64,000 bases of DNA, taken from positions 103 through 64,102 of the IMG/VR virus record IMGVR_UViG_3300020048_000138. The stretch is one strand, 5' to 3'. The notes below the pieces were generated by a model. That model did not search any database. It saw only the letters and a list, made by a program, of their open reading frames with translations, and was not told the DNA's origin. The position numbers and the translations under genes were made by a program. Origin of the DNA: a virus (taxonomy: Duplodnaviria > Caudoviricetes). Of this stretch, positions 344 through 61,172 are shown one piece after another (the stretch's first letter is position 1; each line of letters begins with the position of its first letter).

Positions 344-556
344 TTATTTCTCCCACATAGCCTGTATAATTGATATTTCACCTTTAGCCCATCTGGACAA
401 GGTGTCTACTGCATTTGTACATTTATATGTCCATTTGTCTCGTTCTAATACTGCCTCGCCTATGAAACTATCGTAAAAGACCGCAACTAATGTGGCAGGC
501 AACATAATAATGAACAAAAGCAACAAAGAGATTGTAATTCGGATAAACTTTAGCAT
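344..556 (-). CDS. Small membrane protein
   Basis: Long N-terminal hydrophobic segment; tightly packed in the operon. Confidence 0.55.
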
Positions 557-1041
557 AAAATGGTCTCCATCCCTTGATTAGTGTACTTAAACACTGATAT
601 TTCAGCCGACCTGAACATATTAACTATGTCATTAACTTCATCGCCACCGTATTTGCCTTCAAATACAATAGATTTTACACCTGCATTTATAAGCATCTTG
701 GCACAGATTATACAAGGAAATGTAGTACAGTACAATGTACTACCAACTACAGATACGTCTTCTCGTGCAGCAAAAATAATACAATTCTGTTCAGCGTGAA
801 CACCACGACACAGTTCATGTCTTTCACCGGATGGTATATTGTTAATCATTCTGTAACATCCGACGTCTTCACAATGTGGTACGCCTTTCGGCGTACCATT
901 AAAACCGGTTGTAAGAATCACGTCATCTTTGACTAGGATAGCTCCTACTTGTCTTCTTAGACAAGTACTACGTTGAGCAATTAACCGTGCTATACTTATG
1001 TACAACTCAGTTTTGCTGATTCGTTTCTGTTGGTCCGTCAT
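550..1041 (-). CDS. dCMP deaminase (ComEB/DCTD family)
   Basis: [15 protein letters not shown] and PCIIC zinc-binding motifs; GGAGG SD. Confidence 0.95.
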
Positions 1042-5723: not shown

Positions 5724-6047
5724 TTAGTTGTGCATTAAAATAGTAATAAACTCCTGGTTGTTTTTAATGAAGTTTTTAAGTCCAAGTGTCATACCAACTA
5801 CCTGGGTCTCAGAGAGGTCTAAGTCAAGTTCGTGACTCAAAGCGTGTACGCATTCGTGCAATAAAATCTGGTTTTGTCTTGTAGGACTAACCTGGTTACT
5901 AACTACTATCTCCTGTGTATCATAATCCACTTTACCATAAAGCACACTTACTGAATTTGTTACCTTATCTGATTTGGTAACGGAATAAAGCATGCCTTCA
6001 CAATCAACGGTTGTAGGAAATTCGATTTTGTCAATCTTTTTGCTCAT
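5724..6047 (-). CDS. Small HExxH zinc metallopeptidase-like protein
   Basis: ILLHECVHAL motif. Confidence 0.6.
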   Translation of the reverse strand: MSKKIDKIEFPTTVDCEGMLYSVTKSDKVTNSVSVLYGKVDYDTQEIVVSNQVSPTRQNQILLHECVHALSHELDLDLSETQVVGMTLGLKNFIKNNQEFITILMHN

Positions 6048-6798
6048 TACTAGCTCCTTTCAAATATTGTTTGTAATTGTCAGCTAACATTGTTGACGCT
6101 TGTTTTAAGTTAGTGTATACCACATCTACCATGTCCTCAAATACTACTGGAAATAAATTATACATAATAGTAAATGCTTGTGTCATAAGTACCCGCATCT
6201 GTGGATGTGCTGCTTTATTATAAAAACTTCTTTGTCTAAATACTTCCCGCCATTGTCTTAAATTACAGGTCATATTTACTTCGGTCTTTAAGTTTGTAGG
6301 CAGTACACCCCGTGCTATTTCAGGTCTTATGCCAAGTTTAATAAGTTTCATATAAGCTAGTTCAGCTTGTGTCATAGCTTCCAGCCAGATTTCTACAACC
6401 TCGTTTATTGCTTCAGCAATTAACTCATTGGAACCAACTGGCACGTTATTCTGTATATTTTCAGCTAGTACAGAAATCATGTTTATTACACTAATTTCAT
6501 TAGCTTTACCGTAGTTACAGTAACGTGTTGACTCCTGAGAATAAGAAGCTAGTCTATGTCGTACTAACTCATGTGACACACCTCTGTCTTCAATAAACTT
6601 CAAGGACGCTGTTACATGTTCAAGTACAGACAAATGACCTCTTGCTATTAACATTTTGACAAATTTACCAGCTGAGTCTTCCGTTATCTTGTCCTCGGAC
6701 TTGTAACAAGTCCTGCCCATCTCTTCTATAACTTTATAAGCCATTTCTCCTGTTGGTCCATTGAACATAAATTTTACTGAAGGCTGTACAAGTTTCAT
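6031..6798 (-). CDS. thyX: FAD-dependent thymidylate synthase
   Basis: GHLSVLEH, SHELVRHRLASYSQESTRY (RHRx7S), ARGVLP, AHPQMR. Confidence 0.96.
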   Translation of the reverse strand: MKLVQPSVKFMFNGPTGEMAYKVIEEMGRTCYKSEDKITEDSAGKFVKMLIARGHLSVLEHVTASLKFIEDRGVSHELVRHRLASYSQESTRYCNYGKANEISVINMISVLAENIQNNVPVGSNELIAEAINEVVEIWLEAMTQAELAYMKLIKLGIRPEIARGVLPTNLKTEVNMTCNLRQWREVFRQRSFYNKAAHPQMRVLMTQAFTIMYNLFPVVFEDMVDVVYTNLKQASTMLADNYKQYLKGASNEQKD

Positions 6799-7082
6799 GC
6801 TTCACCACCATATCTAAAGTTTTTGTCGGACATGTCTTCAAGTGGGTCTTCATACTTTTGACATGCTAGTACACCTAAATCAAAAAAGCCATCTGCCATT
6901 TCTGTTATAAATGGACTTTTTATACCATTATTAACTTCGTTAAGTAAGTTTATACAGTAATTAAATCCATTTAAGAAATGTACTTGGTGAGTGTTTAGTT
7001 GTAGTTCTATCACTTTTGGTTTTTTATTACTCATGTTATATGTCCTGCTCGTCAAACATTTCCATTTGTTCATTTGTACCAC
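6795..7082 (-). CDS. Hypothetical protein
   Basis: ORF in operon; true start probably at MSNKKP. Confidence 0.5.
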   Translation of the reverse strand: MVQMNKWKCLTSRTYNMSNKKPKVIELQLNTHQVHFLNGFNYCINLLNEVNNGIKSPFITEMADGFFDLGVLACQKYEDPLEDMSDKNFRYGGEA

Positions 7083-7386
7083 ACATTACAACCATTTCTG
7101 GGTAAAGTGGGTCATCCATGTGTACTGTTATTTCTAACTCTTTTGTTCCGCAGTAAGACGCTAAATATTTTTCAGCTTTCCTTAACTTAAAACAGGAGGC
7201 GGCAGACTTCCAAAATGTGTTTTCATTTTTGTATGTTGGCGTTTGTTCCATTACTTTATAAAGTCTATAAAGTTTAGTAACATTACAGGAGGGTAATGTA
7301 CTAAGTGATATTATATACCCTGACCGTACGTCTTGTGCCAATAAAGTAGTGCTTATTAACAATAACATAAACATTATCTTTTTCAT
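7036..7386 (-). CDS. Hypothetical exported protein
   Basis: Signal-peptide-like N-terminus MKKIMFMLLLISTTLLA. Confidence 0.6.
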   Translation of the reverse strand: MKKIMFMLLLISTTLLAQDVRSGYIISLSTLPSCNVTKLYRLYKVMEQTPTYKNENTFWKSAASCFKLRKAEKYLASYCGTKELEITVHMDDPLYPEMVVMCGTNEQMEMFDEQDI

Positions 7387-7408: not shown

Positions 7409-9337
7409 TTAATTTAAGTTATCCCCAGGATTATCCTTGTTCTCTCCTGTTATAGATTTGAATCTAGGGAGTGTCTGAATATTCGGATGCGAAAGAATGT
7501 AATCACCAAGAAACAATATATGAATATTGCTCTCGATAAATCTGGTGACTGCTTCTTCCGGAGTCCTTATAATCGGTTCCCCATGGGCATTAAATGACGT
7601 GTTTATAAATGCTGGTTTACCTGTCAATTTTTTGTACCTTATAAGGGCAGTGTAAATAAACGGATGGTCATCACGGCTTACAACCTGTGCTCTGACCGTG
7701 CCGTCAATATGGACAGCACCCGGACAAAGTTCTTTAAACAAGTCTGACGCTGTGAAATTTATGGTCATGTACTTCGCAGCTTCTTTTGTAACATCATTGT
7801 AGTCAAGAAACATATCTTTTGCATCAACATCACAAATAACAGGGGCAAATGGCATTGTTTCTGTTCTACCCAACTGTTTGTTTAACCAAAGACTTACATC
7901 TTTGTCAGTGCAATTAAAGTGTATAGACCTATTACAAAGAGCTCTAGGACCCCACTCCATAGGACCATTATAATTTGCTACAATATACCCATCATTTATT
8001 GCTTTTGCAAGTACAGATGCTTTGTCATCACATTTGGACAACATACAATTTGTAAGTCTGTGATAAGACCACTGTATTTCGTCATGGTAAGGATTATAGC
8101 CCATGTATATTGACTTTAATTCATTGTTACGAATATAAGTTGTATCAAACAACTGAGCAAATGCTGCTCCTACAGATGTACCACCATCGCCCATGTGAGG
8201 ACAAATCCAAAGTTTTTTAACATTTGGAAGTTTAGCGATTTTTTGATTTATAATCACATTTGCAAACAAGCCACCAGCAAGACAAACGTTTGTAGGTTTC
8301 TCACACTGTTCCATAAAAAACCGTATAAAGTCAACAGCCAGATTTTCTACAACCGTTTGAAGACTACATGCTATATCCGCTATGGTTTCCACGTCATGGC
8401 CTCTGTCGGCTAGTATTCTCTTAACAACCTGGAACACTTTTGCTTCATACTTTTCAAAAATGTCAAAGTCAATAATAGGACTTGTTTTCAATGTGGTATG
8501 GTTGGATTCCAGTCCTCTCACATAATCCATTATGCTTACAAAGTCCTGTATGTAAACTGGTTTACCACGGGCAGCGAGTCCTGTAAGTTTGCCTTCCTGT
8601 TCGTGCATCTTGTATCCGACAGCACCGGTTGTAAACTGGTACAACAAGCCAAGAGAACATGCTAAAGGCATTGTTTCTACTGTTCTAAACTTGTTTTCTC
8701 CTGGTTCCATTTCATGGAATGCTACTGAACGACCATCACCAAAACCGTCCATAGTAAATATCAAGCACTGTTCATCTAAAGGATAGTTAGATGTACCCCA
8801 AGCACTGAAGGCATGTGCTACGTGATGGTCAACTCTGATTATCTCAGGTAAATCGTATGTACCAAGTGCATGTCCTATTAAATGCTTTAATAAGTCAGAA
8901 CTCAGTTTAGAACCATAATTTGACTTCAAATGGTACGTGTAATAGTCTTTATCTGATTCACATTTGGTCCAGAACTCACCCACTTGTTCAAAAAATAATT
9001 TGTCTTCATCACTGGACATAGCTTCCATCATTTTTGCTATACGTATTTTGTTATAACGTATTAAGTCATACGCACATATATCAGCATAGTGTGAAAGAGC
9101 TATGGCATGAAGATTTTTCAAAGACAAGTTTGTTGTACTTAACACGTGGTTTATAGAGTGAAATGGAAACTCTTTTGTTTGTTTTGTTCTGTTATATCTT
9201 TCTTCATTTGTAGCACAAAGTAATCCATGTATATTAGATACTATAGCGGCACCTGAGTCAGAGCCTAGTGAAATACCTAATACATTAATACCTGAACTTG
9301 TAACCGGGATAACATGTAAACTCATACTGTCCTCCAT
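7409..9337 (-). CDS. O-carbamoyltransferase (NodU/CmcH/TobZ family)
   Basis: NEERYNRTK, HHVAHA, DGFGD, EGKLTGLAARG, LAGGLFANV, GDGGTSVGAA, EWGPRALCNRSI, MPFAP, HIDGTVRAQ, NTSFNAHGEPI. Confidence 0.95.
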   Translation of the reverse strand: MEDSMSLHVIPVTSSGINVLGISLGSDSGAAIVSNIHGLLCATNEERYNRTKQTKEFPFHSINHVLSTTNLSLKNLHAIALSHYADICAYDLIRYNKIRIAKMMEAMSSDEDKLFFEQVGEFWTKCESDKDYYTYHLKSNYGSKLSSDLLKHLIGHALGTYDLPEIIRVDHHVAHAFSAWGTSNYPLDEQCLIFTMDGFGDGRSVAFHEMEPGENKFRTVETMPLACSLGLLYQFTTGAVGYKMHEQEGKLTGLAARGKPVYIQDFVSIMDYVRGLESNHTTLKTSPIIDFDIFEKYEAKVFQVVKRILADRGHDVETIADIACSLQTVVENLAVDFIRFFMEQCEKPTNVCLAGGLFANVIINQKIAKLPNVKKLWICPHMGDGGTSVGAAFAQLFDTTYIRNNELKSIYMGYNPYHDEIQWSYHRLTNCMLSKCDDKASVLAKAINDGYIVANYNGPMEWGPRALCNRSIHFNCTDKDVSLWLNKQLGRTETMPFAPVICDVDAKDMFLDYNDVTKEAAKYMTINFTASDLFKELCPGAVHIDGTVRAQVVSRDDHPFIYTALIRYKKLTGKPAFINTSFNAHGEPIIRTPEEAVTRFIESNIHILFLGDYILSHPNIQTLPRFKSITGENKDNPGDNLN

Positions 9338-9579
9338 ACTTTATATTTTTTAATACTAGCAGGTCTTATTGAAATAGACTTGCCACAAACTACACAATCC
9401 TCCGTTATAGTGTCACAATCAGCAGAATCAGCATACGGTATATAGTCTTCAATTTTATTCATTTGTGCACTACTACACCATGGACATATTAAAACTGTAC
9501 CTTCATTAACTATAGTCATATTAAACTCCTGAACTACCAAGACCATTGTTACCACGTGTAGACATGTCTGCCCATACAA
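9322..9579 (-). CDS. Small zinc-finger protein
   Basis: CPWC...CVVC; likely start MTIVNEG near 9519. Confidence 0.55.
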   Translation of the reverse strand: MYGQTCLHVVTMVLVVQEFNMTIVNEGTVLICPWCSSAQMNKIEDYIPYADSADCDTITEDCVVCGKSISIRPASIKKYKVWRTV

Positions 9580-9979
9580 CGGGGTTTACAACCGCTATTG
9601 AATGGAAAACCATTTGACAAAGTCTATCATTTGCTTTAAAGGAGAAAGGAGTATCTGATAGGTTAACCAGTATGATAGAAAACTCTCCTGCGAAACTGGA
9701 GTCAATAGGTGCCATTACAGTGATAACGCCTTGTGAACCCACTGAACTTCTTGGGTATAGGTTAGCTTCATAACCGATAGGTACATCGACACTAAAGCCA
9801 GACTTAACCTTAAAGATTTTTCCTGGTTCTATTATGCCACCACAAGGCATGTACAAGTCTATGCCTGAATCATTACTGTAAGCTTTGCTTGGATAGTTTA
9901 CATCAGCATTATGTCTTACAAATACTACATCCATAACTTTTCTCCTATCTGCTCCATTAACCACATAGTAGATTGACAT
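9521..9979 (-). CDS. dut: Trimeric dUTPase-family nucleotidohydrolase
   Basis: DSGIDL, PRSS, APIDSSFAG, RLCQ, RGNNGLGSSG (motifs I-V, with III and V diverged). Confidence 0.88.
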   Translation of the reverse strand: MSIYYVVNGADRRKVMDVVFVRHNADVNYPSKAYSNDSGIDLYMPCGGIIEPGKIFKVKSGFSVDVPIGYEANLYPRSSVGSQGVITVMAPIDSSFAGEFSIILVNLSDTPFSFKANDRLCQMVFHSIAVVNPVVWADMSTRGNNGLGSSGV

Positions 9980-10968
9980 AGATATGGTTCAAGGTTCTCT
10001 AATGACTGTTTCATTAGTGTTTTTACCGCCTCTGGTTTATTTTTCTTATATGTCTTGTAACAAGCGTACAAAGCTAGTGTCATAGCTATATCTTTAGAAG
10101 CATTAGATTTTAAACCATTTATACCAAGTATTCTACCATACTGAACTGGGTCTACATGTTCTTGTAGTCTGTAGAACTCTTCAACATTACGAAGCAAAGA
10201 TAAGTCTGCCATAAAAGCACTATCATATACTATGTCTCTTTTGTAAGAGTCATACAAGTAGTTACTATTTGTTATTCTTACAACCTCGTCAGCAAGTTCA
10301 TAATCTTTTCTGTATATGTGAAAAGAACCGACTGTGTGATAATAAGCTCCACATTGTACTTTTAACTCATTTGCTATTATTTCCTGAAGTACAGTAAAGA
10401 AATAAACATCATAAGTAGTACCCCACACACAATCATTACTTCTCATTGTGACATGTTGTACTAATTTATTGTCACGGATAAAGAATTGTAAACAAAGTGT
10501 GCAAACTTCATCATTTGTGGGTACTTGATTTGGAGTGTGTAAATGAATTATAGCTTGCCTTGTAAATGGGTCATCTTTTAATTGCTGTATAACTCTTTTG
10601 AATTGGTTAAATTGAATTGTTAAATACTCAACACCTTTGAATATTCTGTGACCATAAGCACTATTTAATGTTTTACCGTCATCTGAGCATCTGTTCCATA
10701 CTTTAGAATAGTAAGAAATAAAGTCAAGTGAATTACTACCCAGAAAATACCAAAGCAATTCACCCGCCATGTAAAATGGATTAGGTTTACGAGCTTTATT
10801 AAACAGTATCCTGTCTCTGCAATTTGTAAAATTAAATGTATGACCTATTAACTCTTTACATTCAATCCCTCTTGGAAATACAACAGAACCTTTCCATTTC
10901 AAACATTCCAATGAATGTACATACGAATTACTAAAATTATCCATAACAACCTCACAAATTAAGTTCAA
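9925..10968 (-). CDS. Thymidylate-synthase homolog of the dCMP hydroxymethylase type (T4 gp42-like)
   Basis: GELLWY, SAYG, DEVCT in place of ThyA PCH, RSNDCVWGTTYD with Asp at the Asn177-equivalent site, GSFHIY. Confidence 0.88.
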   Translation of the reverse strand: MNLICEVVMDNFSNSYVHSLECLKWKGSVVFPRGIECKELIGHTFNFTNCRDRILFNKARKPNPFYMAGELLWYFLGSNSLDFISYYSKVWNRCSDDGKTLNSAYGHRIFKGVEYLTIQFNQFKRVIQQLKDDPFTRQAIIHLHTPNQVPTNDEVCTLCLQFFIRDNKLVQHVTMRSNDCVWGTTYDVYFFTVLQEIIANELKVQCGAYYHTVGSFHIYRKDYELADEVVRITNSNYLYDSYKRDIVYDSAFMADLSLLRNVEEFYRLQEHVDPVQYGRILGINGLKSNASKDIAMTLALYACYKTYKKNKPEAVKTLMKQSLENLEPYLCQSTMWLMEQIGEKLWM

Positions 10969-11425
10969 GTCGTATGTGTTTAACAGACGAAAATAAAAGT
11001 TCGTACGTATCTTTTATACGACATAGTTGTTCTTCGTTTACGTAGTCCTCTCCGCGGTCTCTAGCTCTAGCTACAAGTACTTCTTTTGTATTTGTAACAT
11101 GTATAATAAGACAAGTTAGTTCACTCATCCTTTCTTTTATTTTCATTACGTCCTCTGCATGAAGAGTGGTATTGCCACATCTTACAACCGTTGAATATAC
11201 AAATTCACTAAAGTAGAATCTATCCAAAATGATGTCGGACTCTTTAAGTATATTCATGTACGTATCAAGTATCGCTGGGTCATTTTGTGTTAAATGTTTA
11301 ACTGGAAAGTCTGTGATAAGATGCAACAGGTTGCAGACTGTCGTTTTTCCGGCACAGTCTGGTCCTTCTACGATAATAATTAACTTACTAAAATCAATCT
11401 CTAGCAGGGTGTTTAACATAGACAT
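10952..11425 (-). CDS. dNMP (thymidylate-kinase-like) kinase
   Basis: IIVEGPDCAGKTT P-loop; LDRFYFSEFVY. Confidence 0.85.
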   Translation of the reverse strand: MSMLNTLLEIDFSKLIIIVEGPDCAGKTTVCNLLHLITDFPVKHLTQNDPAILDTYMNILKESDIILDRFYFSEFVYSTVVRCGNTTLHAEDVMKIKERMSELTCLIIHVTNTKEVLVARARDRGEDYVNEEQLCRIKDTYELLFSSVKHIRLELNL

Positions 11426-11436
11426 GAGGCCTCCTT

Positions 11437-11466
11437 AAATAGTAAAGGGGAGTTAAAAACTCCCCT
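11437..11466 (-). terminator. Intrinsic terminator after 11490..12242
   Basis: AGGGGAGTT-AAA-AACTCCCCT hairpin with a T-rich tail on the minus strand. Confidence 0.7.
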
Positions 11467-19352: not shown

Positions 19353-20006
19353 TTAATTATATACAGTTGTGTTCTTTTTAACAAGTTCTTCAATTATTCC
19401 CTGTGATTCCATACAAGTACTAGCCATAACATCCGCTGCGTGAAATGCTGCCACTTCAGGTGTTGCTATACAAGCACCATAAAAATCAGCAACGTTCTGG
19501 GTTGTGGAAGGTCCCATGTGCCAGAATATACACTGTTTTTCATGCATAGTTAAAGGTATAAAATCCAACAACATAAGTACACTTTTAGCACCATGGCCAA
19601 ACGGTTCTGTATCAGTTACATACTCGTAACTAGGATAACTTTCCCACTTGTCATTAGCGTCTTTCCGCCAAGCTGTTCTTACTTTATAACGGCCTACTTT
19701 ACATATGTCATGTAACAATGGCACAATATTAACCATATCGTTACACTCTTTAGTGTCTTGTAACAAACCTATACTGTTTAAAGTTTGTACAAACAATGTT
19801 TGTGTAATAATGGAATGAGCTACAAGACCACCGTCATAAGCACTATGATATTTAGCGCTAGCTGGGTCTATGTAAAAAGAACTATTAGCAAGGTACTCTG
19901 TAAGTTTATCAATACCTGGACGTTGTACTGAAGCTAAATTGTCTACTACACGTTTTTTGTTAGCTTTAACAGTAGCTAAATGGGCTGTGAATTGTTCTGA
20001 GTACAT
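19353..20006 (-). CDS. HD-domain phosphohydrolase
   Basis: YHSAYDGGLVAHS, LLHDICK, FGHG, WHMG, HAAD. Confidence 0.88.
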   Translation of the reverse strand: MYSEQFTAHLATVKANKKRVVDNLASVQRPGIDKLTEYLANSSFYIDPASAKYHSAYDGGLVAHSIITQTLFVQTLNSIGLLQDTKECNDMVNIVPLLHDICKVGRYKVRTAWRKDANDKWESYPSYEYVTDTEPFGHGAKSVLMLLDFIPLTMHEKQCIFWHMGPSTTQNVADFYGACIATPEVAAFHAADVMASTCMESQGIIEELVKKNTTVYN

Positions 20007-53662: not shown

Positions 53663-54374
53663 ATACTAAGTTTTTTTCACAATGACTTGGGTTCAAAATG
53701 GATTTTCAAAAGATTGAAGGCCCCCTTCGTCAAAATTTCAAAATTATATATTTGCCATTTTACAAAATACTTGCCCGTACGGTTCAGTAAATCTGCACAC
53801 CCCTCATTTCGGAAAAGTTGTGTATTTTTCAACGTCACTTTCCGTGTCTACAACCCTTAAACACCATTCAAAGAGGTTGTAAGAGGCCGTACTTTTGCAA
53901 AAAAACTCAAAACACTGTGTGGTTAAGAAAGCCAGTGAGTCCCATGTAACTCTAACAATACCTAAACTATTCTACTTTTAGTTTTTTGAACTTAAAAGTT
54001 TTTTGTTCAAAAAGTTTTTTAATTAAAAGGTTTTTAAGTTAAAAGTTTTTTGAATTAAAAAATTAAATGTTCAAATTAATTATAATTCGATTATTTTTAA
54101 TAGTTAATAAAGATTTTTTATTTTATATTTGATTTAATTATTTATAATAATCATTAGAATATTTTTATTTAATATTAAATTAGATTATTTAGAATAAGGA
54201 TTAAACAATTTATATTTAATAATTAATTATATTATTTATAATAGAGATTAAACATTTTATATTTAATACTAAAATAGATTATTTTTAATTGTTATTAGAA
54301 TATTTATATAAAATAATAAATTAGAATAGATTTAATATTGATTAGAAATTTTAGATTGATTGATTGATTTTAGA

Positions 54375-54908
54375 TTATCTTGAAATAATAGATTGATAAA
54401 CAACCTGCAAAAGATTAAATATATCATCATCATTAAAATGATTTTCAATGATAAAATTATGATAAAATTCTGCTAAATTTTCTTGACTTTCTAAGAAGTT
54501 TTCAAGATTAGAAATATCTAAAGATTTTTCTAAATCAATATTGATTAGAGAATAAATATCAAAAATAACCTCTAAATCAGATTTATTGAGATTTTCATAT
54601 AATTTCTGATAATCAGCTTTTATTTCTCTATTGTTTTCTAATTCTTCATTGAAAATGTCAAGATATTCTTTAGAATTTTCAAAATCATTATAAAAAATTT
54701 GAGATAGATAAAACATATTATTATTTTGATAATTGATAATTCTCATATTAGCAAAATCTTTATCTTTTTGAATATAGAGCAAAATTCTTTTTTCTGTTTT
54801 ATTTTGCTCTAAAAAATCATCATAATAAGAAACTTCAATTTCAATCTTTTCAATTTCATAATTTTCAACATTTTTAATTTCATTCGATAAAATTTCAATT
54901 TTCTGCAT
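54375..54908 (-). CDS. Acidic hypothetical protein (DNA-mimic candidate)
   Basis: GAGAGG SD; 37 D/E versus 16 K/R; no Gly, Pro, Trp or Cys. Confidence 0.7.
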   Translation of the reverse strand: MQKIEILSNEIKNVENYEIEKIEIEVSYYDDFLEQNKTEKRILLYIQKDKDFANMRIINYQNNNMFYLSQIFYNDFENSKEYLDIFNEELENNREIKADYQKLYENLNKSDLEVIFDIYSLINIDLEKSLDISNLENFLESQENLAEFYHNFIIENHFNDDDIFNLLQVVYQSIISR

Positions 54909-55432
54909 AATAAACCTCTCAGATAAGAATTAATAAAACAACAAAAATCATTAGATTATATAATATTTTTTAATAAAAAGAAAGAAAATAATTAAAATTT
55001 ATAAAAATACTCCATATTTTCAAAGATTCTATTTTCTTTCAAAATATCTTGAATAGCTCTAAAACGAATAGATTTTAATTCTATTGAATAAAGATGATTT
55101 TTAATATTAAGATATTAATCTAATCATTTTCGTTTAACCTTGCTTAATTCTGAGATTCAAATTTTTTCTTGACTTTTGAAAATTTTTTATGATGAAAAAT
55201 AATATTCAAGAAAACTTGACTTTTTTATAAATATTTCTCAGAAAAATCAATTTTATAAAAACACCATAGATTTTTATTTATATTTTTATTTTATAAAAAA
55301 ATTAAAAAATATCTTTACTTTTATATATTTTTATGATATATTTCTTTAGTTCTTTTGAAACTGAAACAGAGATTTTGCGATTCTAACCAGATAAGCATAA
55401 AAATTAAAAAGAAAAAATAAAATTCTTTTTTA

Positions 55433-55461
55433 TTGCTTTTTATGAAAAAATCGTTTATAAT
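55433..55461 (+). promoter_or_regulatory. Sigma70-type promoter for the plus-strand early genes
   Basis: TTGCTT-17bp-TATAAT; chance matches are likely in such AT-rich DNA. Confidence 0.5.
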
Positions 55462-55743
55462 CTCAATAGAGAATTGAAAATTTCAATTTCTCTTTTCTAG
55501 TTCTTTGAAATTTTAAGAATTGATTTTTATTTCTGAATTTTTCAAGATTTTGAAAACCTCTGAAAAATCTGAAATTTTGAATTTTTGAAATTATTTTTTT
55601 AATTTTGAATTTTTGAAATTTTTTTAACGGTTTTTCAGATACTTCTTGAAAACCAGAAATAAATTAACCCTGAAACCAAGTTCGGTGACGGTTACCGGTA
55701 AGGCTACCGGAACCGGTTACCGAACTCACTATAGGAGGCTACC

Positions 55744-56046
55744 ATGCAAACTACAGAAGTTAAATCAGGCAAAGGGTTCAAAATCACTACTGACCTCGGA
55801 ACCGGTCATCAGGTGGTAACTGTGATGAAGGCTGACCTCAAGGGCATCGCCTACACCCAGGCTATCGGAACCGGTTTTGATAAAGGTCACCAGAACAAAG
55901 GTCTGGTATTCCTAAGTCAGGTGGTTAAGGAACTATTAGGATTAGAGGTGGACCTGAATGCTGAAAGAAAGGCAGCGATTCAGAGACTCAGAGCGGCAGA
56001 CCAGTCAGCCATCATCAGCGACGAGCTGGCTTCGATGGCTCACTAG
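55744..56046 (+). CDS. Hypothetical early protein, paralog of 57725..58177
   Basis: GGAGG SD; DLKGIA...QNKGLVFLSQ...EVDLNAER. Confidence 0.8.
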   Translation: MQTTEVKSGKGFKITTDLGTGHQVVTVMKADLKGIAYTQAIGTGFDKGHQNKGLVFLSQVVKELLGLEVDLNAERKAAIQRLRAADQSAIISDELASMAH

Positions 56047-56718
56047 AACCAGGGGCCAGTCGCCCCTTAAGGTCAGGGTTACAACCCCTGGACTTAAGAA
56101 GCGGTTGGAGACCACAGGCGATGACCAGTGACCAGCTGACTCCCGATTCCAGTCATATCTGGAGGCAGGAGACAGATGGCCGACGAGTCCAGGTGGCAGA
56201 CTGCAGGCCAGGTGACAGATGGCAGGAGAAATGATTGAACTGGTTCATCACTAGAGCGCCCACAGTTGACAACTGTTGACGAATCGGGTGAGGCCAGGTG
56301 ATTCCTAGGTCTTTGACAATCGAGCAGCGGGAAGGTCAGCCAAAAACCTGGCTACCTCTAAAGAAACTTACTGGGTGACCCTATATGTGGGGGTCCCGGC
56401 CACTGGGTCATCGAAAAATTTCATCAAATTTCTCGAAGTAGGACCCAGGAAGCAGTAACCAGCTACTCGCTATCGGCGAGCCAGTTACCTGTAAAGGTGA
56501 CCAGTAAAGGCCAACAGTTATCTCTAAAAGATGACCTCCAGCCTCCTACCGGCAATCGGTTACCAGCAAGTTTCAAAAAGAAAGGTATAGTAAAGCCCCT
56601 CCTAACAAACCCCTTGACCTGGTATAGGTCAAGGGTCAGCTATGGAGCCTACAGTCCCCTTTGGTGATTCAACCAAAGGAGGTTGTAGACCCTATAACTT
56701 AGAACAAGGAGGCACCAA
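56047..56718 (+). ncRNA. Candidate structured non-coding RNA or regulatory DNA
   Basis: ~670 nt GC-rich gap with no ORF of 60 aa or more and many long hairpins. Confidence 0.35.
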
Positions 56719-57150
56719 ATGGTAAGAATGACACTTGAAGAAATGGCCAACTGTTTAGAATCTAAACCCGATGTGTTTAAAGTCCCATCAGGAAAACCTA
56801 AACTTACCAAGGCCGGCCGAGACCGTCAGAAAGCACACTATGCAGACCGAGCAGACATCTGCCGAGTCCTAGCCAAGTACCTCATAATCCTAAAGGTGAA
56901 CTTTCACCTGGATTATAAGACTACAACAATGTGGATTGACTCAGTGCGAGTCACTGAAGGCATCCTTCAGTTCACCCATAGTGAGGTTGTAAACAGCGAA
57001 GAACCTGTCGACCATATCACTATGTTACTCAGAATGGCCGATGCCTATGATGACTGCTATGAGTCTGTTAATTCAGTCGAAAACATGTTTTACAACCTTG
57101 ATGTTGATTATGACATGCAAGACTTTATCGGTCACAAGAAAGAGCTTTAG
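56719..57150 (+). CDS. Hypothetical protein
   Basis: AAGGAGG SD; followed by a hairpin. Confidence 0.75.
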   Translation: MVRMTLEEMANCLESKPDVFKVPSGKPKLTKAGRDRQKAHYADRADICRVLAKYLIILKVNFHLDYKTTTMWIDSVRVTEGILQFTHSEVVNSEEPVDHITMLLRMADAYDDCYESVNSVENMFYNLDVDYDMQDFIGHKKEL

Positions 57151-57157
57151 ATTTATC

Positions 57158-57181
57158 GAGTCCATTGGCAACAATGGGCTC
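57158..57181 (+). terminator. Hairpin (terminator or processing site)
   Basis: GAGTCCATTG-GCAA-CAATGGGCTC. Confidence 0.55.
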
Positions 57182-57217
57182 TATTGAGTCCAAAGTGGGC
57201 TACTAAAGGAGGCGATT

Positions 57218-57571
57218 ATGTTAAAAATTACTATGGCTATGACAGGAATTATGTTTGTCGGTTTAATCACACTTTGTGCCAACTATGCTAGTGCAGCAGA
57301 CGAAGCACTTGATGAGGTTGTAAGCGGTTGTGAGGAATCTTGTGGCAACTTTCCTGGAGCACAGTTCAATGAGTGCTTTCAGCAGTGTGTTGAAGCTGGT
57401 GGACCTGGGGAATCAGACTGGGAGCCAGAAATTGACTGTGATGAGTGCTACGAATGTAAGTGTGTAGGTGAGTGTACCTATGACAACATGACCTGTGAAT
57501 TTCAGCACACAGATACTTGTGTTGAGAATTGTTTAGTTGATGGCGAAGACATTTATGGTGACTGGGAATAG
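57218..57571 (+). CDS. Secreted Cys-rich acidic protein
   Basis: Signal peptide ending ASA|A; 12 Cys in the mature part, several as CxxxC. Confidence 0.75.
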   Translation: MLKITMAMTGIMFVGLITLCANYASAADEALDEVVSGCEESCGNFPGAQFNECFQQCVEAGGPGESDWEPEIDCDECYECKCVGECTYDNMTCEFQHTDTCVENCLVDGEDIYGDWE

Positions 57572-57586
57572 ATTCGACTTACTGTG

Positions 57587-57611
57587 CCCTGTGGAATTAA
57601 ATTCTACAGGG
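57587..57611 (+). terminator. Hairpin (terminator or processing site)
   Basis: CCCTGTGGAAT-TAA-ATTCTACAGGG. Confidence 0.55.
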
Positions 57612-57645
57612 TACGAATAAGTTGAAATTTAAGTACAGAAAAGTC

Positions 57646-57674
57646 TTGATTTTGATTTCAACTGGGTGTATAAT
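57646..57674 (+). promoter_or_regulatory. Sigma70-type promoter
   Basis: TTGATT-17bp-TATAAT upstream of 57725. Confidence 0.7.
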
Positions 57675-57724
57675 ATAAAAAGATGATACGAAATTCGGTT
57701 TGTATTATCTAGTTAACTTAATGA

Positions 57725-58177
57725 ATGGAGGCTACTATGTCAAAAAAGAACACAAAAAACCAAGTGAACACAGTTGTTGAGTCTACCCCTGAAATGGTTC
57801 TTGAATCAACAGAGGTTGTAGAAGTGTCTGTAAGGGACCTTGTGAAAAAGGAAGCAGAGACAGTAAGCATTAACCTGGAGGCAGGAAAGTACAAGATTTC
57901 TGACAAATCGGTGATTTACAAAAGAGGCAAGGCTTGGACGATTGACACCACCATAGACGAAAAGAATGTGGTTGGTTCAGTACTCAAAGATGACCTTAAA
58001 GGAATAGCAAGGACCTACTGGGTGGGTGGTGAAAAAGCCTACCAGAACAAAGGTTTGGTCTATCTCAGTCAGATTATTAAGGCCCTTCTTAATGTAGAGG
58101 TTGATTTGAACCATGAAAGGCAGATAGCAAGAGAGTTCATAAGGTTACATGAAAGTGAATTGACATTTAATCAGTAG
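57725..58177 (+). CDS. Hypothetical early protein, paralog of 55744..56046
   Basis: DLKGIA...QNKGLVYLSQ...EVDLNHER. Confidence 0.8.
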   Translation: MEATMSKKNTKNQVNTVVESTPEMVLESTEVVEVSVRDLVKKEAETVSINLEAGKYKISDKSVIYKRGKAWTIDTTIDEKNVVGSVLKDDLKGIARTYWVGGEKAYQNKGLVYLSQIIKALLNVEVDLNHERQIAREFIRLHESELTFNQ

Positions 58178-58185
58178 AGTGTTAT

Positions 58186-58207
58186 GCCTCATTAGTGATA
58201 ATGGGGC
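58186..58207 (+). terminator. Hairpin (terminator or processing site)
   Basis: GCCTCATTA-GTGA-TAATGGGGC. Confidence 0.5.
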
Positions 58208-58219
58208 TCATAGACTTTA

Positions 58220-58690
58220 TTGGCTATTAAGGAGGCTATTATGATTACTAAGTTTGGTTCTCAAATTCGCAAGGCTATGAATTGCGAGCAGTGCTATGAG
58301 TGGAATGGTGGGTGCATCAGCCTAGACGAAGCCTGCAACAAGAATGGGTCGTCTACAACCCTGTTAACCGAGGCATTAAGACTGGCAACAGCTAATGGCT
58401 ACGGTGTGATACTTGGAGGAAAGAATCTGATAGCAAGACACCGGGTGGATGGAGACTTGAACTTCCAGTATGTTACCAGTGCCATCTATTGGTTCACTCT
58501 TTACAACCACTTTAAAGAGGTTGAAGGAGTCGAGAAGTTGGAGAAAGGAGGCAAGAACTGGCAACTGTGTTGGAAATGCACAGACATACTGGATGGATAC
58601 TTTGAAGGTGACCAACAGACAATAATTCCTTGCTCTTTACCTGAACTTGATGACGAACTCATCAACAAGGCTATGGTGATATTTAAGTGA
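58220..58690 (+). CDS. Hypothetical protein
   Basis: Probable start MITKF after AAGGAGG; CxxC motifs. Confidence 0.7.
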   Translation: MAIKEAIMITKFGSQIRKAMNCEQCYEWNGGCISLDEACNKNGSSTTLLTEALRLATANGYGVILGGKNLIARHRVDGDLNFQYVTSAIYWFTLYNHFKEVEGVEKLEKGGKNWQLCWKCTDILDGYFEGDQQTIIPCSLPELDDELINKAMVIFK

Positions 58691-58698
58691 CTTGCACC

Positions 58699-58723
58699 GT
58701 GTTAACTCTGTTTGAGTTAACAC
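58699..58723 (+). terminator. Hairpin
   Basis: GTGTTAACTC-TGTTT-GAGTTAACAC. Confidence 0.5.
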
Positions 58724-58765
58724 CATGGAGGTTGCATAAGGTAACCACTTTATTAATTTTGTTAC

Positions 58766-59161
58766 ATGGAGACTACTATGGGAAGACAATCAAAAGACCT
58801 TTTTACATCAAAGAACCTGCTTGTTGAAGTGTTTAAAGGAGCAGGAGCCAAGACAAGGGAGTTGTGTAGAGATGCTTCAAAACCCGCTTTGAATGCCACT
58901 CTTTCGCTGGCATTACTTAAAGGCGATAAAGATGCAGTTAAAGCCCTTATTAACAAAGGGGCAGAGATTGACGAGCAGGCAACATTTCTTGCTTGTGCCT
59001 CTGGCAACCTTGGTATAGTTGAGATGTTTGATGACCGTTATGCGGAGTTCACAGAAGACGATGTGAAAGTGGCTAAACTTAATGGTTATATGGACATTGC
59101 AGACTTTGTACAGGAGAGACTGGACGCTGAAGAAAGAAGAGCGAAGGACCTTATTAAGTAA
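58766..59161 (+). CDS. Ankyrin-repeat-like protein
   Basis: ALLKGDKDAVKALINKGAEID, ACASGNLGIVEMF, AKLNGYMDIADFV. Confidence 0.7.
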   Translation: METTMGRQSKDLFTSKNLLVEVFKGAGAKTRELCRDASKPALNATLSLALLKGDKDAVKALINKGAEIDEQATFLACASGNLGIVEMFDDRYAEFTEDDVKVAKLNGYMDIADFVQERLDAEERRAKDLIK

Positions 59162-59166
59162 GCTGA

Positions 59167-59197
59167 TTCAATGGCGGGTATTACAACCGCCATTGAA
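59167..59197 (+). terminator. Hairpin overlapping the genome-wide octamer
   Basis: TTCAATGGCGG-9nt-CCGCCATTGAA. Confidence 0.55.
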
Positions 59198-59209
59198 ATG
59201 AACTGACTT

Positions 59210-59581
59210 ATGGAGGTAAACATGGAAGAAAGTTATGCGATGATTAAAGAATTTAGTACATCAAAACTGAGTATGATTGACAGTTACAGACTTAAGGATC
59301 GTATCAAAGACGCTTCTATGAAAATAGCTGTGGCTAAGCGTATCTTAGTTACAGAAGAGCCTATGTGGATAAAGATTGTATGGGTTGACAACAGTGTTTG
59401 GAAAGCCCCTATATTATTTACAAACTGGGCTTTGGTTTACTTGTATATGCTTAATATTGACGCTATGGAAGCCGAAAGCAAGAAACAAAGTGTAGACGCT
59501 ACCAAAATATGGACTCTATACTACACTTTCGTGTATCCTGGTTTTTTAATGTCCTTTGAAAACTTTATAAAAAGAGGTTAA
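59210..59581 (+). CDS. Hypothetical protein
   Basis: GGAGG SD before MEESY. Confidence 0.65.
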   Translation: MEVNMEESYAMIKEFSTSKLSMIDSYRLKDRIKDASMKIAVAKRILVTEEPMWIKIVWVDNSVWKAPILFTNWALVYLYMLNIDAMEAESKKQSVDATKIWTLYYTFVYPGFLMSFENFIKRG

Positions 59582-59683
59582 CCATGGGTAAAAAAGTAGT
59601 AATCGTTACAGTGGTCTACGTAGTAGACACAATGGGTGAAGCACAGAATGTACTCGATGAGGTTGTAGGCGTATGCGGGCCTT

Positions 59684-59878
59684 ATGAAAAGGCTAACCTA
59701 CAAGAATCGTATGTTTACTAAAATCAAGAACCTGGTATTACTTTATTTAATGCTACTGTTTATGTGGCATGTAGTACCACTTTTACCGGGTGGTTTGTTG
59801 GTTAGGGCTTTATTTATTTGGCTTACGGTTACTGCTTTAGTTAGTTTTACTAAGTTAATATTAAACAGGAGAAGTTAA
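59684..59878 (+). CDS. Small two-helix membrane protein
   Basis: Two hydrophobic segments. Confidence 0.55.
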   Translation: MKRLTYKNRMFTKIKNLVLLYLMLLFMWHVVPLLPGGLLVRALFIWLTVTALVSFTKLILNRRS

Positions 59879-60169
59879 ATGGTCACTTTAGAGATTAAAA
59901 GGCTTGCGGCTATTGCTGCAACCAAAATGAATTTAGACCTGTCAACAATAGAAGAGTTAATAAGTGAAGACTTAAACGTGTTCATACACTGTGAAGGTAA
60001 ACTTTTACAGGACTATTCTATTGACTTGTTTATACAAAATACCCCACATTGTTCTACATGTGGATCCTACAAAGTAGAGATACATAACATGACTATGTCA
60101 GAAGAATTTGACTCTGGCACAGAAGTTATGGTATGTGAATGTGGTAAGTCATCAAGTTTTGGAGGTTAA
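59879..60169 (+). CDS. Hypothetical zinc-ribbon protein
   Basis: CSTC...CEC; AGGAG SD. Confidence 0.6.
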   Translation: MVTLEIKRLAAIAATKMNLDLSTIEELISEDLNVFIHCEGKLLQDYSIDLFIQNTPHCSTCGSYKVEIHNMTMSEEFDSGTEVMVCECGKSSSFGG

Positions 60170-60584
60170 CATGAACAAACGAGAAGCGATTGAATGTATG
60201 GTGTCTTTAGCAAAAGACACAGAAACAGAACTGGATTGTATAGGCGCTTTGTGCTTAGCTTGTGAAGACAACACAGAATGCCCGTGTCATTTAGTACCAG
60301 AAGAGTGTGTAAACTATGTCAGTGATATTACTGACATATTTGAACTACTTAATGAAACTATTAAAGTTGTTGCTGATAAAATACAACTGGAATCATTGTA
60401 TGTTGTATGGTCACGATTGGATACAGAATCAGCCGAGTGGGTAAAGCACTCAGTACAGTATACAATATCTGACGCTTGGGCTGACGGTAAAATATTAGTT
60501 GACTATTCCCCTAGTGAAGTAAGTTCCATATCATACCTTATAAATGACTTGGTGGATTGGTACCATGAAGAACGTAGTAAGTAG
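60108..60584 (+). CDS. Hypothetical protein
   Basis: Probable start MNKRE at 60171 after GGAGG. Confidence 0.65.
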   Translation: MTLAQKLWYVNVVSHQVLEVNMNKREAIECMVSLAKDTETELDCIGALCLACEDNTECPCHLVPEECVNYVSDITDIFELLNETIKVVADKIQLESLYVVWSRLDTESAEWVKHSVQYTISDAWADGKILVDYSPSEVSSISYLINDLVDWYHEERSK

Positions 60585-60589
60585 CCTCC

Positions 60590-60620
60590 AGGGGACTCTT
60601 TTTGAGTCCCCTATTTTTTT
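60590..60620 (+). terminator. Intrinsic terminator
   Basis: AGGGGACTC-T6-GAGTCCCCT followed by a T-tract. Confidence 0.75.
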
Positions 60621-60732
60621 AAGTTGGCACTATGGTTACAATAAAGCGGTTGTAAAATCCATTCAACTTATAGAAGCATACCAACAGTCTGAACCAACTA
60701 TGCTTATAATGCAAATACTTAACATGAGGTAC

Positions 60733-60957
60733 ATGACAGAAGACAATTACCATGTAAAAGTACCTCGTTGTATATGTAAGTGGGATTCACAACGCAGTAA
60801 GTATGTGGAATATTACAACCCTCGATGTATATTAAACAATGCTCAGTATGGTGGAGCTTATTACGGATTTACAATAGTTCTTAAAGTACTAGCAAATCAC
60901 GGGTATTATGCTTCCGTACTAAAAGATGGAGAAGTTCAACCAGTTATTTATAGGTGA
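60733..60957 (+). CDS. Hypothetical protein
   Basis: Track ORF 60544..60957; start moved to ATG 60733 (GAGG SD), past the terminator. Confidence 0.5.
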   Translation: MTEDNYHVKVPRCICKWDSQRSKYVEYYNPRCILNNAQYGGAYYGFTIVLKVLANHGYYASVLKDGEVQPVIYR

Positions 60958-61172
60958 CAATCATGCAACAATTCGTACAATTTACACAAAAAGATGGTAC
61001 AATTATATCTGGTAAATCTAATGCTAAAATATACTTTAAGCAAAACAAGAACTTATTTCTTGTTTGGATTAACCACATTATGTACATACTGTCAGCGTCA
61101 GAGAAAGAAACATTTCACTGTATACGTCAACCAAAATCAAGTCCAACTCCGGACAAACAATCATTAAAGTAA
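60954..61172 (+). CDS. Hypothetical protein
   Basis: Last plus-strand ORF before the convergence region. Confidence 0.5.
   Translation: MTIMQQFVQFTQKDGTIISGKSNAKIYFKQNKNLFLVWINHIMYILSASEKETFHCIRQPKSSPTPDKQSLK

Follow-up and report, generated by a model that had tools for sequence, protein, structure and literature searches.

In this study we analyzed a 64,000-nucleotide stretch of DNA (the window; positions 103 to 64,102 of the IMG/VR virus record IMGVR_UViG_3300020048_000138) from a tailed phage of the Caudoviricetes, which encodes a compact set of genes for a putative cytosine modification. Judging from the sequence, the DNA of this phage probably carries 5-carbamoyloxymethyl-deoxycytidine (5-carbamoyloxymethyl-dC), and the genes would form a T4-like pathway of pre-replicative cytosine replacement with a carbamoyl cap instead of a sugar. 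Five contiguous minus-strand genes encode a P-loop deoxynucleoside monophosphate (dNMP) kinase, a homologue of thymidylate synthase (TS), a dUTPase-family protein, a small zinc ribbon and a carbamoyltransferase of the NodU/CmcH/TobZ family (Table 1). All five had been listed at 7409-11425 in a first-pass annotation made from the letters alone, and are present there according to Pfam and PHROG matches or, for the zinc ribbon, CxxC motifs. The motifs quoted from the TS homologue, DEVCT and RSNDCVWGTTYD, are both found in that protein, and the separate ThyX gene that had been claimed was recovered as well. A dCMP deaminase gene was found in addition to the genes of that earlier list.

The five genes form a tightly coupled operon. 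Their starts were refined from the DNA within the longer open reading frames (ORFs) of the TS homologue (9925-10968), the dUTPase-family protein (9521-9979), the zinc ribbon (9322-9579) and the carbamoyltransferase (7409-9337). The TS gene begins at ATG 10944, preceded by GAGG and located 7 nucleotides (nt) past the stop of the kinase gene. The dUTPase-family gene begins at ATG 9934 and is preceded by AGGAG. The start of the zinc-ribbon gene, ATG 9519, lies 1 nt past the dUTPase stop, with AGGAG 6 nt before the ATG. The carbamoyltransferase start, ATG 9325, stands behind GGAGG and shares an ATGA overlap with the zinc-ribbon stop; a second in-frame ATG is located at 9337. Within this operon, the TS and carbamoyltransferase genes are about 600 bp apart.

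The best solved match of the TS homologue is the CMP hydroxymethylase MilA (E 2.5e-36), while T4 gp42 and canonical thymidylate synthases match at about 1e-12 to 1e-17 (T4 gp42 at 1e-12). We aligned the protein with T4 gp42, E. coli ThyA, the dUMP hydroxymethylase of SP10, gp319 of phage G and the enzyme of XP12, a phage with 5-methylcytosine (5mC). Counted from ATG 10944, the residues of interest are Glu62, Ser95/Tyr97, Arg129, Asp145, Cys148, Arg168-Ser169, Asp171, Asp179 and His209/Tyr211. Five of them (Asp145, Cys148, Ser169, Asp171 and Asp179) even have the same numbers as in T4 gp42, and Cys148 and Glu62 align with Cys148 and Glu60 of T4 and with Cys146 and Glu58 of E. coli. The same catalytic Cys/Glu/Asp/His/Tyr set is present in MilA (PDB 5b6d, 5jnh).

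The specificity residues point to a deoxycytidylate substrate and to hydroxymethylation. Asp179, within the motif TTYDV, occupies the position of ThyA Asn177. Asp is also found there in T4 gp42 and MilA, and Asn in E. coli ThyA and the SP10 enzyme; Asp at this position (MilA 186, T4 179) characterizes cytosine users and Asn uracil users (PMC5175136). The earlier reading of this Asp as a mark of dCMP is thus upheld, and two further signatures accompany it. Ser169 and Arg129 align with Ala176 and Lys133 of MilA, and Ser plus Arg is the pair of deoxyribose users, whereas MilA and BcmA possess the ribose-type pair Ala176/Lys133 (PMC5175136). Hydroxymethylases are distinguished from methylating TS enzymes by a Ser holding the substrate water and by an Asp at the Cys-3 position, three residues ahead of the catalytic Cys, where TS enzymes have Leu (PMC6400193). 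The window protein displays this hydroxymethylase signature, Asp145-x-x-Cys148 and Ser95-x-Tyr97; the Cys-3 position is Leu in E. coli ThyA and Asn in the XP12 enzyme. Since Asp179, Asp145/Ser95 and Ser169/Arg129 match the published marks (PMC5175136 and PMC6400193), the TS homologue is very likely a dCMP 5-hydroxymethylase. It could otherwise be a dCMP methyltransferase producing 5mC, or a CMP-specific enzyme, and the DNA would then offer no hydroxyl acceptor. Asp at position 177 is shared with the 5mC enzyme of XP12, and MilA, the best solved match, prefers CMP, but XP12 lacks the Asp145/Ser95 signature, having Asn where ThyA has Leu, the Ser169/Arg129 pair is not the Ala/Lys of MilA, and a partner of the O-carbamoyltransferase type requires a hydroxyl group. 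We therefore regard an enzyme other than a dCMP hydroxymethylase as highly improbable.

Among cultured phages, the closest relative of the TS homologue is gp319 of Bacillus phage G (locus L079, gp313-gp319), with 40% identity. Asp occupies both the Asn177 and the Cys-3 positions in gp319 too, and its neighbourhood includes a dCMP deaminase and a protein annotated as alpha-glucosyltransferase, suggesting a route to glucosylated hydroxymethylcytosine in this jumbo phage.

The carbamoyltransferase combines a Kae1-like domain (Carbam_trans_N, PF02543) with a YrdC-like one (Carbam_trans_C, PF16861), and its solved relatives are all O-carbamoyltransferases (NovN, GdmN and TobZ; E 1e-27 to 3e-41). 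The metal ligands His171, His175, Asp197 and Asp384 are kept together with the motifs GPRAL, HIDGTVRAQ (HxDGTxRxQ) and NTSFN, and all of these are invariant in the homologue alignments. Its closest relatives, P0003 and P0004, are 83% and 70% identical, and a large family of relatives with 33-42% identity, encoded on contigs of 40-55 kb, was found in the protein database. Cultured phages gave no carbamoyltransferase match above 30% identity; Acinetobacter phages HHU4 and Effie were among the matches, in the carbamoyltransferase comparison only.

A phage carbamoyltransferase acting on 5-hydroxymethylcytosine (5hmC), as cited by the first-pass annotation, is indeed described in the MetaGPA study (Yang et al., eLife 2021; PMC8670742), where it was found via the same co-occurrence with TS. 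In that study, carbamoyltransferase domains were enriched in contigs of cytosine-modified phages. They co-occurred with TS homologues possessing Asp177 only in modified contigs, and also with PRA-PH and dCMP deaminase domains (PMC8670742). With one purified enzyme, nearly 100% of the 5hmdC in single-stranded DNA and about 60% of 5hmdCTP became carbamoylated, and 5mdCTP and 5hmdUTP were not converted (PMC8670742). The window resembles this system in several respects: the gene of a two-domain NodU/TobZ-type carbamoyltransferase is a neighbour of that of a TS homologue with Asp in place of Asn177, and the tailed-phage contig also encodes a dCMP deaminase and a dNTP pyrophosphatase.

The linkage between the two enzymes is widely conserved. 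A viral scan with the single protein gave no match. An alignment-based scan of IMG/VR yielded 74 loci with a related carbamoyltransferase, and a TS homologue was located within 7 kb in 68 of the 74. All 68 of these TS homologues have Asp at both the Asn177 and the Cys-3 positions. Five closer relatives were identified on metagenome contigs, with carbamoyltransferases 37-42% identical to that of the window. In four of them a TS gene with the diagnostic Asp adjoins; the fifth contig, L082, is too short to show a TS gene and has dUTPase and ThyX genes. The same metagenome scan recovered 58 more distant carbamoyltransferase homologues without a nearby TS gene. Taken over the 76 TS-linked loci, the window included, both Asp residues are found in 72 of the 72 TS homologues that could be aligned. 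One of the close relatives, L081, has the gene order of the window: primase, guanylate-kinase-like kinase, a conserved ORF of 250 codons (orf250), dNMP kinase, Asp-type TS homologue, dUTPase, carbamoyltransferase, ThyX, a small ORF and DNA polymerase. The zinc ribbon and two other ORFs of the window, orf116 and orf95, are absent from L081.

A maximum-likelihood tree was constructed from 109 carbamoyltransferases. Clade A is composed of 42 proteins, all TS-linked, and includes those of L037, L069, L049 and Xanthomonas phage Xp15 (L031). The window enzyme falls in clade B, a group of 26 proteins with an SH-aLRT support of 99, of which 23 are TS-linked and three come from short contigs. The 40 unlinked carbamoyltransferases branch apart from both clades. 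Clade B is thus a second large TS-linked carbamoyltransferase clade, and has no experimentally characterised member.

Columns of the alignment were then compared between clade A, clade B and the 40 unlinked enzymes (window numbering). Gln234 is present in 100% of both clades and in 0% of the unlinked enzymes. Gly25 (95% of clade A, 88% of clade B) and His83 (100% and 85%) are likewise absent from all unlinked enzymes. Cys468, which replaces the Gly of GPRAL-G, occurs in 90% of clade A, 58% of clade B and none of the unlinked enzymes, 39 of 40 of which have Gly. The column of Cys468 may correspond to the position of TobZ G421, and the MetaGPA study reported differential residues at TobZ positions W408, G421 and R423 (PMC8670742). 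All four residues, Gly25, His83, Gln234 and Cys468, are found in the window enzyme, and the matching motifs are seen in the published enzyme's sequence. These shared signature residues are the main support for the proposed extension of the 5hmC function to clade B.

The H-x-D-G-T-x-R-x-Q motif of the YrdC-like domain was found to be remodelled in clade A (for example in L037, L069 and L031), with an insertion and loss of DGT, and is retained in clade B and in the unlinked enzymes.

The carbamoyltransferase might still act elsewhere, on a metabolite of the free nucleotide pool, on RNA or on a glycan, and the phage would then have plain 5hmC DNA. The family mostly decorates secondary metabolites and glycans, the cyanophage copies adjoin glycosyltransferases, and the window enzyme is far from the tested one, which takes RNA and free nucleotides in vitro too (PMC8670742). 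However, this clade is strictly linked to a cytosine hydroxymethylase while the unlinked enzymes branch apart, the signature residues are common to the window and the tested enzyme, and the carbamoyltransferase gene is translationally coupled within a nucleotide operon. An acceptor other than DNA cytosine is therefore quite unlikely.

The dNMP kinase, whose best solved relative is YorR of SPbeta (E 2e-8), also appears to be a constant partner. Its homologues adjoin the Asp-type TS gene in both carbamoyltransferase clades; in clade A, the ORF that immediately precedes the TS gene matches the kinase profile at E 9e-10. In L003 (8753-10264) and L010 (8900-10381), TS homologue and kinase form one fusion protein with the kinase at the C-terminal side, and the matches of the kinase profile in L007 and L013 extend over an ORF of similar length. 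This adjacency and fusion place the kinase in the conserved core of the module.

The other clade-A ORF encodes a PRA-PH/MazG-type pyrophosphatase (PF01503), and four clade-B loci possess a dUTPase_2/MazG-like gene directly before the carbamoyltransferase gene. Among the 76 TS-linked loci, 32 have a MazG-type and 23 a trimeric dUTPase-type pyrophosphatase, and only two have both; either type was found in only one of 62 loci with an unlinked carbamoyltransferase. This distribution suggests that the two types fill one role, which by analogy to T4 gp56 would be the hydrolysis of dCTP and dUTP. The window protein is certainly a dUTPase by family: it matches PDB dUTPases at E 2e-15, with the five motifs SGIDL, PRSS, IDSSFAGE, DRLCQ and RGNNGLGSSG present, among them motif III with its catalytic Asp and the P-loop-like motif V. 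A role as dCTPase is possible. The motifs were also considered as a means to separate dUTP from dCTP specificity, and give no discrimination. The aromatic residue of motif V is replaced by Leu in the window and L081 only, with Phe in the other linked loci. In T4 (gp56) and in MetaGPA-type modules, the dCTP-pyrophosphatase job is done by all-alpha enzymes of the MazG/PRA-PH type. We consider it possible, though rather doubtful, that a trimeric dUTPase-fold enzyme with Leu in motif V took over this job in the lineage of the window. If true, the trimeric dUTPase fold would have gained a new base specificity, and the pathway would have been assembled separately in the clade-B carbamoyltransferase modules.

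Translational coupling to the carbamoyltransferase gene suggests that the zinc-ribbon gene is genuine. It was rejected as a conserved part of the module and is lineage-specific: L081 and L082 lack it, and a survey of 137 loci gave no similar ORF conserved next to the carbamoyltransferase gene, an unrelated ORF with two CxxC motifs being located within 3 kb in four of them. For orf250, which is conserved between the two kinase genes, only three close homologues were found in 5.8 billion proteins, besides that in L081. The AlphaFold model of orf250 (predicted local distance difference test, pLDDT, 74.8) consists of a long helix rich in Lys, Glu and Ala, a small C-terminal domain of the beta/alpha type and a tail rich in Pro and Ala. 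A fold search with this model gave Z scores of at most 6.2, mostly to the long helix, with no convincing match, and a search of the Atlas gave no usable match.

Several points weigh against the proposal that 5-carbamoyloxymethyl-dC is the final base. The survey loci were gathered with patterns derived from this carbamoyltransferase family, and the sampling is biased accordingly. The window carbamoyltransferase is only about 24-27% identical to clade A, which is the motif match of the tested enzyme, and the published enzyme was itself placed with L037, L069 and L049 via five short motifs, not by full-length alignment. In the free tree, clade A, clade B and the unlinked groups meet at a polytomy that leaves the relation of A to B unresolved. 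On the supporting side, a tree constrained to join A and B was 31 log-likelihood units better than the quick free tree (p-AU 0.82), so a single TS-linked group A+B is not rejected and is mildly favoured by these sequences. The trimeric dUTPase-like proteins of most related loci look canonical, and a dCTPase among them is only a possibility. Finally, the completeness of the contig was estimated by CheckV at about 60%, and further modifying enzymes are possible in the missing 40% or so.

The last point bears on an alternative in which 5-hydroxymethyl-dC DNA is made and the carbamate is not the final state, either because other enzymes, encoded in the missing part of the genome or by the zinc ribbon, orf250, orf116 and orf95, add to or replace the carbamoyl group, or because only a fraction of the sites is modified. 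Besides the incompleteness of the contig, this reading is favoured by several ORFs of the block that are conserved or coupled and to which no function could be assigned. Against this, the window gave no match to another transferase. Scans of approximately 50 window ORFs on this partial contig yielded no glycosyltransferase domain, in line with what the first-pass annotation had noted. A search of the window for a second TS-fold gene was also negative (TS profile with filters off, nothing at E <10; Pfam and PHROG on the neighbouring ORFs), and no such gene was seen beside those clade-B carbamoyltransferases that were inspected. Moreover, the syntenic L081 keeps the core without the zinc ribbon, orf116 and orf95. 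Further modification of the carbamate is therefore unlikely, and 5-carbamoyloxymethyl-dC is the preferred reading. The initial inference of this base is favoured by all of the sequence-level tests and by a linkage conserved across 76 loci, and is tempered by the position of the window enzyme in the other clade, at about 25% identity. The first-pass description of the pathway as complete-looking was overstated, as exclusion of dCTP is hypothetical, the dUTPase motifs are ordinary and about 40% of the genome is missing.

The sequence shows the domain identities, the residues for catalysis and specificity, the structure of the operon and the conserved linkage, and from these we infer the enzymatic activities, the acceptor of the carbamoyl group, the stage at which it is added and how much of the cytosine is replaced. 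The acceptor in particular follows from genetic context and the shared signature residues, as the clade-B enzyme is distant from the tested clade. The TS-fold enzyme would convert dCMP with methylene-tetrahydrofolate to 5-hydroxymethyl-dCMP (5hm-dCMP). In this reaction, Cys148 would attack C6, Asp179 would read the cytosine, and Asp145 and Ser95 would hold the water that hydrates the exocyclic methylene. The adjacent P-loop kinase would raise 5hm-dCMP to the diphosphate, a nucleoside diphosphate kinase of the host would produce 5hm-dCTP, and the family-A polymerase of the phage would incorporate it into DNA. The YrdC-like half of the carbamoyltransferase is predicted to form carbamoyl-AMP from carbamoyl phosphate and ATP, and the Kae1-like half would transfer the carbamoyl group to the 5-CH2OH oxygen, either on 5hm-dCTP or on single-stranded DNA, yielding 5-carbamoyloxymethyl-dC. 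The dCMP deaminase would feed dUMP to ThyX, so that synthesis of dTMP stays independent. The dUTPase-family enzyme would supply dUMP and keep uracil out of the DNA, and may hydrolyse dCTP too.

This arrangement follows the same logic as the T4 pathway (gp56 dCTPase, gp42, gp1 dNMP kinase, alpha- and beta-glucosyltransferases and the cd dCMP deaminase), in which the hydroxyl is decorated after pre-replicative steps. The active-site residues of T4 gp42 are all matched in the window TS homologue, which is nevertheless nearer to MilA and is extended by about 115 aa at the C-terminus. It differs from MilA, which prefers ribo-CMP, by having Arg and Ser as in deoxyribonucleotide users. The window kinase is thymidylate-kinase/YorR-like and not of the T4 gp1 family, and dTMP is made via ThyX, not ThyA. 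Neither a gp56-type dCTPase nor a glucosyltransferase was found in the window. Compared with the MetaGPA system, the window enzyme belongs to the other clade and keeps the standard HxDGTxRxQ, the pyrophosphatase is of the trimeric dUTPase family instead of the PRA-PH/MazG type, and a zinc-ribbon gene is inserted before the carbamoyltransferase gene. In Xanthomonas phage Xp15 the module has the order carbamoyltransferase, pyrophosphatase, dNMP kinase and Asp-type TS homologue; it differs from the window in carbamoyltransferase clade, gene order and pyrophosphatase type.

The IMG/VR contig is 64,102 bp long, and the window comprises nearly all of it. Portal, large and small terminase subunits, tail sheath, tape measure and baseplate proteins are encoded, together with a replication block of family-A DNA polymerase, primase-helicase, helicase, ligase and SbcCD-like nuclease. 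The minus strand carries almost every gene up to about 54 kb. The phage is probably a myovirus of the Firmicutes type; a Firmicutes host is suggested by the G+C content of 37% together with the primase, which shares 54% identity with the primases of Bacillus phages vB_BboS-125 and phBC6A51. A blastn search of the operon region against phage records gave no match. The G+C content drops to 22% over about 2 kb at 54001-56000. From 56000 to 61000 the genes turn to the plus strand, G+C reaches 45% and the GC skew is positive; no Pfam match was obtained for any of the plus-strand ORFs there.

Further features lie around the operon. A terminator-like hairpin separates orf250 from the kinase gene; in the consensus scan the number of terminator-like sites in the region was not above shuffled expectation, and neither was that of promoter-like sites. 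Two small minus-strand ORFs (7036-7386 and 6795-7082) sit between the carbamoyltransferase and ThyX genes, which are directly adjacent in L081 and L082, ThyX coming after the carbamoyltransferase. The 116-aa protein encoded here (orf116) has an N-terminal hydrophobic stretch resembling a signal peptide. Between ThyX and DNA polymerase, a minus-strand ORF of 107 aa (5724-6047) has an HExxH-like motif and matches phrog_1233 of unknown function; its position is taken by a small ORF in L081. An HD-motif protein (H...HD...D; 19353-20006, minus strand) matches phrog_28876, 'metal-dependent phosphohydrolase', at E 2e-41, with no sequence match in Pfam or PDB. This HD-type phosphohydrolase is another dCTPase candidate, and could be a nucleotide hydrolase relevant to pool control.

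Table 1. Features of the predicted modification operon and related genes (positions in the window).
Feature	Position	Strand	Evidence
dCMP deaminase	550..1041	-	PF00383 E 1.2e-21; HAE and PCxxC motifs intact
ThyX flavin-dependent thymidylate synthase	6031..6798	-	PF02511 E 8.5e-42; RHRxxS motif
NodU/CmcH/TobZ-family O-carbamoyltransferase, 638 aa	7409..9325	-	PF02543 E 8e-36, 124.6 bits; PF16861 E 9e-44, 149.4 bits
Zinc ribbon CPWC...CVVC, 65 aa	9322..9519	-	CxxC...CxxC; no Pfam/PHROG match
Trimeric dUTPase-family dNTP pyrophosphatase, 137 aa	9521..9934	-	PF00692 E 2e-19
TS-fold deoxycytidylate 5-hydroxymethylase (predicted), 339 aa	9925..10944	-	PF00303 E 9e-28, 97.6 bits (cut-off 24.3); phrog_5131 E 7e-58
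P-loop dNMP kinase, thymidylate-kinase-like, 157 aa	10952..11425	-	PF02223 28.1 bits (cut-off 27); phrog_761 E 3.5e-17
Terminator-like hairpin, 9-bp G+C-rich stem and T-rich tail	11446..11466	-	Between orf250 and kinase gene; consensus scan only
orf250, 250 aa	11490..12242	-	Located between the kinase genes in the window and in L081
Second P-loop nucleotide kinase, guanylate-kinase-like, 218 aa	12392..13048	-	phrog_1815 E 5e-21; weak PDB guanylate kinase matches; belongs to the conserved nucleotide block, syntenic in L081

The window is another example of the published route from 5hmC to its carbamoyl derivative, with a different pyrophosphatase partner. So far, the demonstration of 5-carbamoyloxymethylcytosine comes from a single enzyme, encoded on one sewage contig. 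Our literature search found the MetaGPA study as the only paper on this modification, no report on the DNA chemistry of the cultured phages in clade A, and no phage whose DNA was shown to carry the base. To this the window adds a compact and well-defined module. Gln234 and Gly25 provide a simple signature that separates the hydroxymethylase-linked enzymes from the rest of the family, and the comparison of loci gives the picture of a conserved core comprising the carbamoyltransferase, the Asp-type TS homologue, the dNMP kinase and an interchangeable dNTP pyrophosphatase. The known pathway is left unchanged by these results, which are of use for annotation and for choosing enzymes in DNA-labelling or sequencing chemistry.

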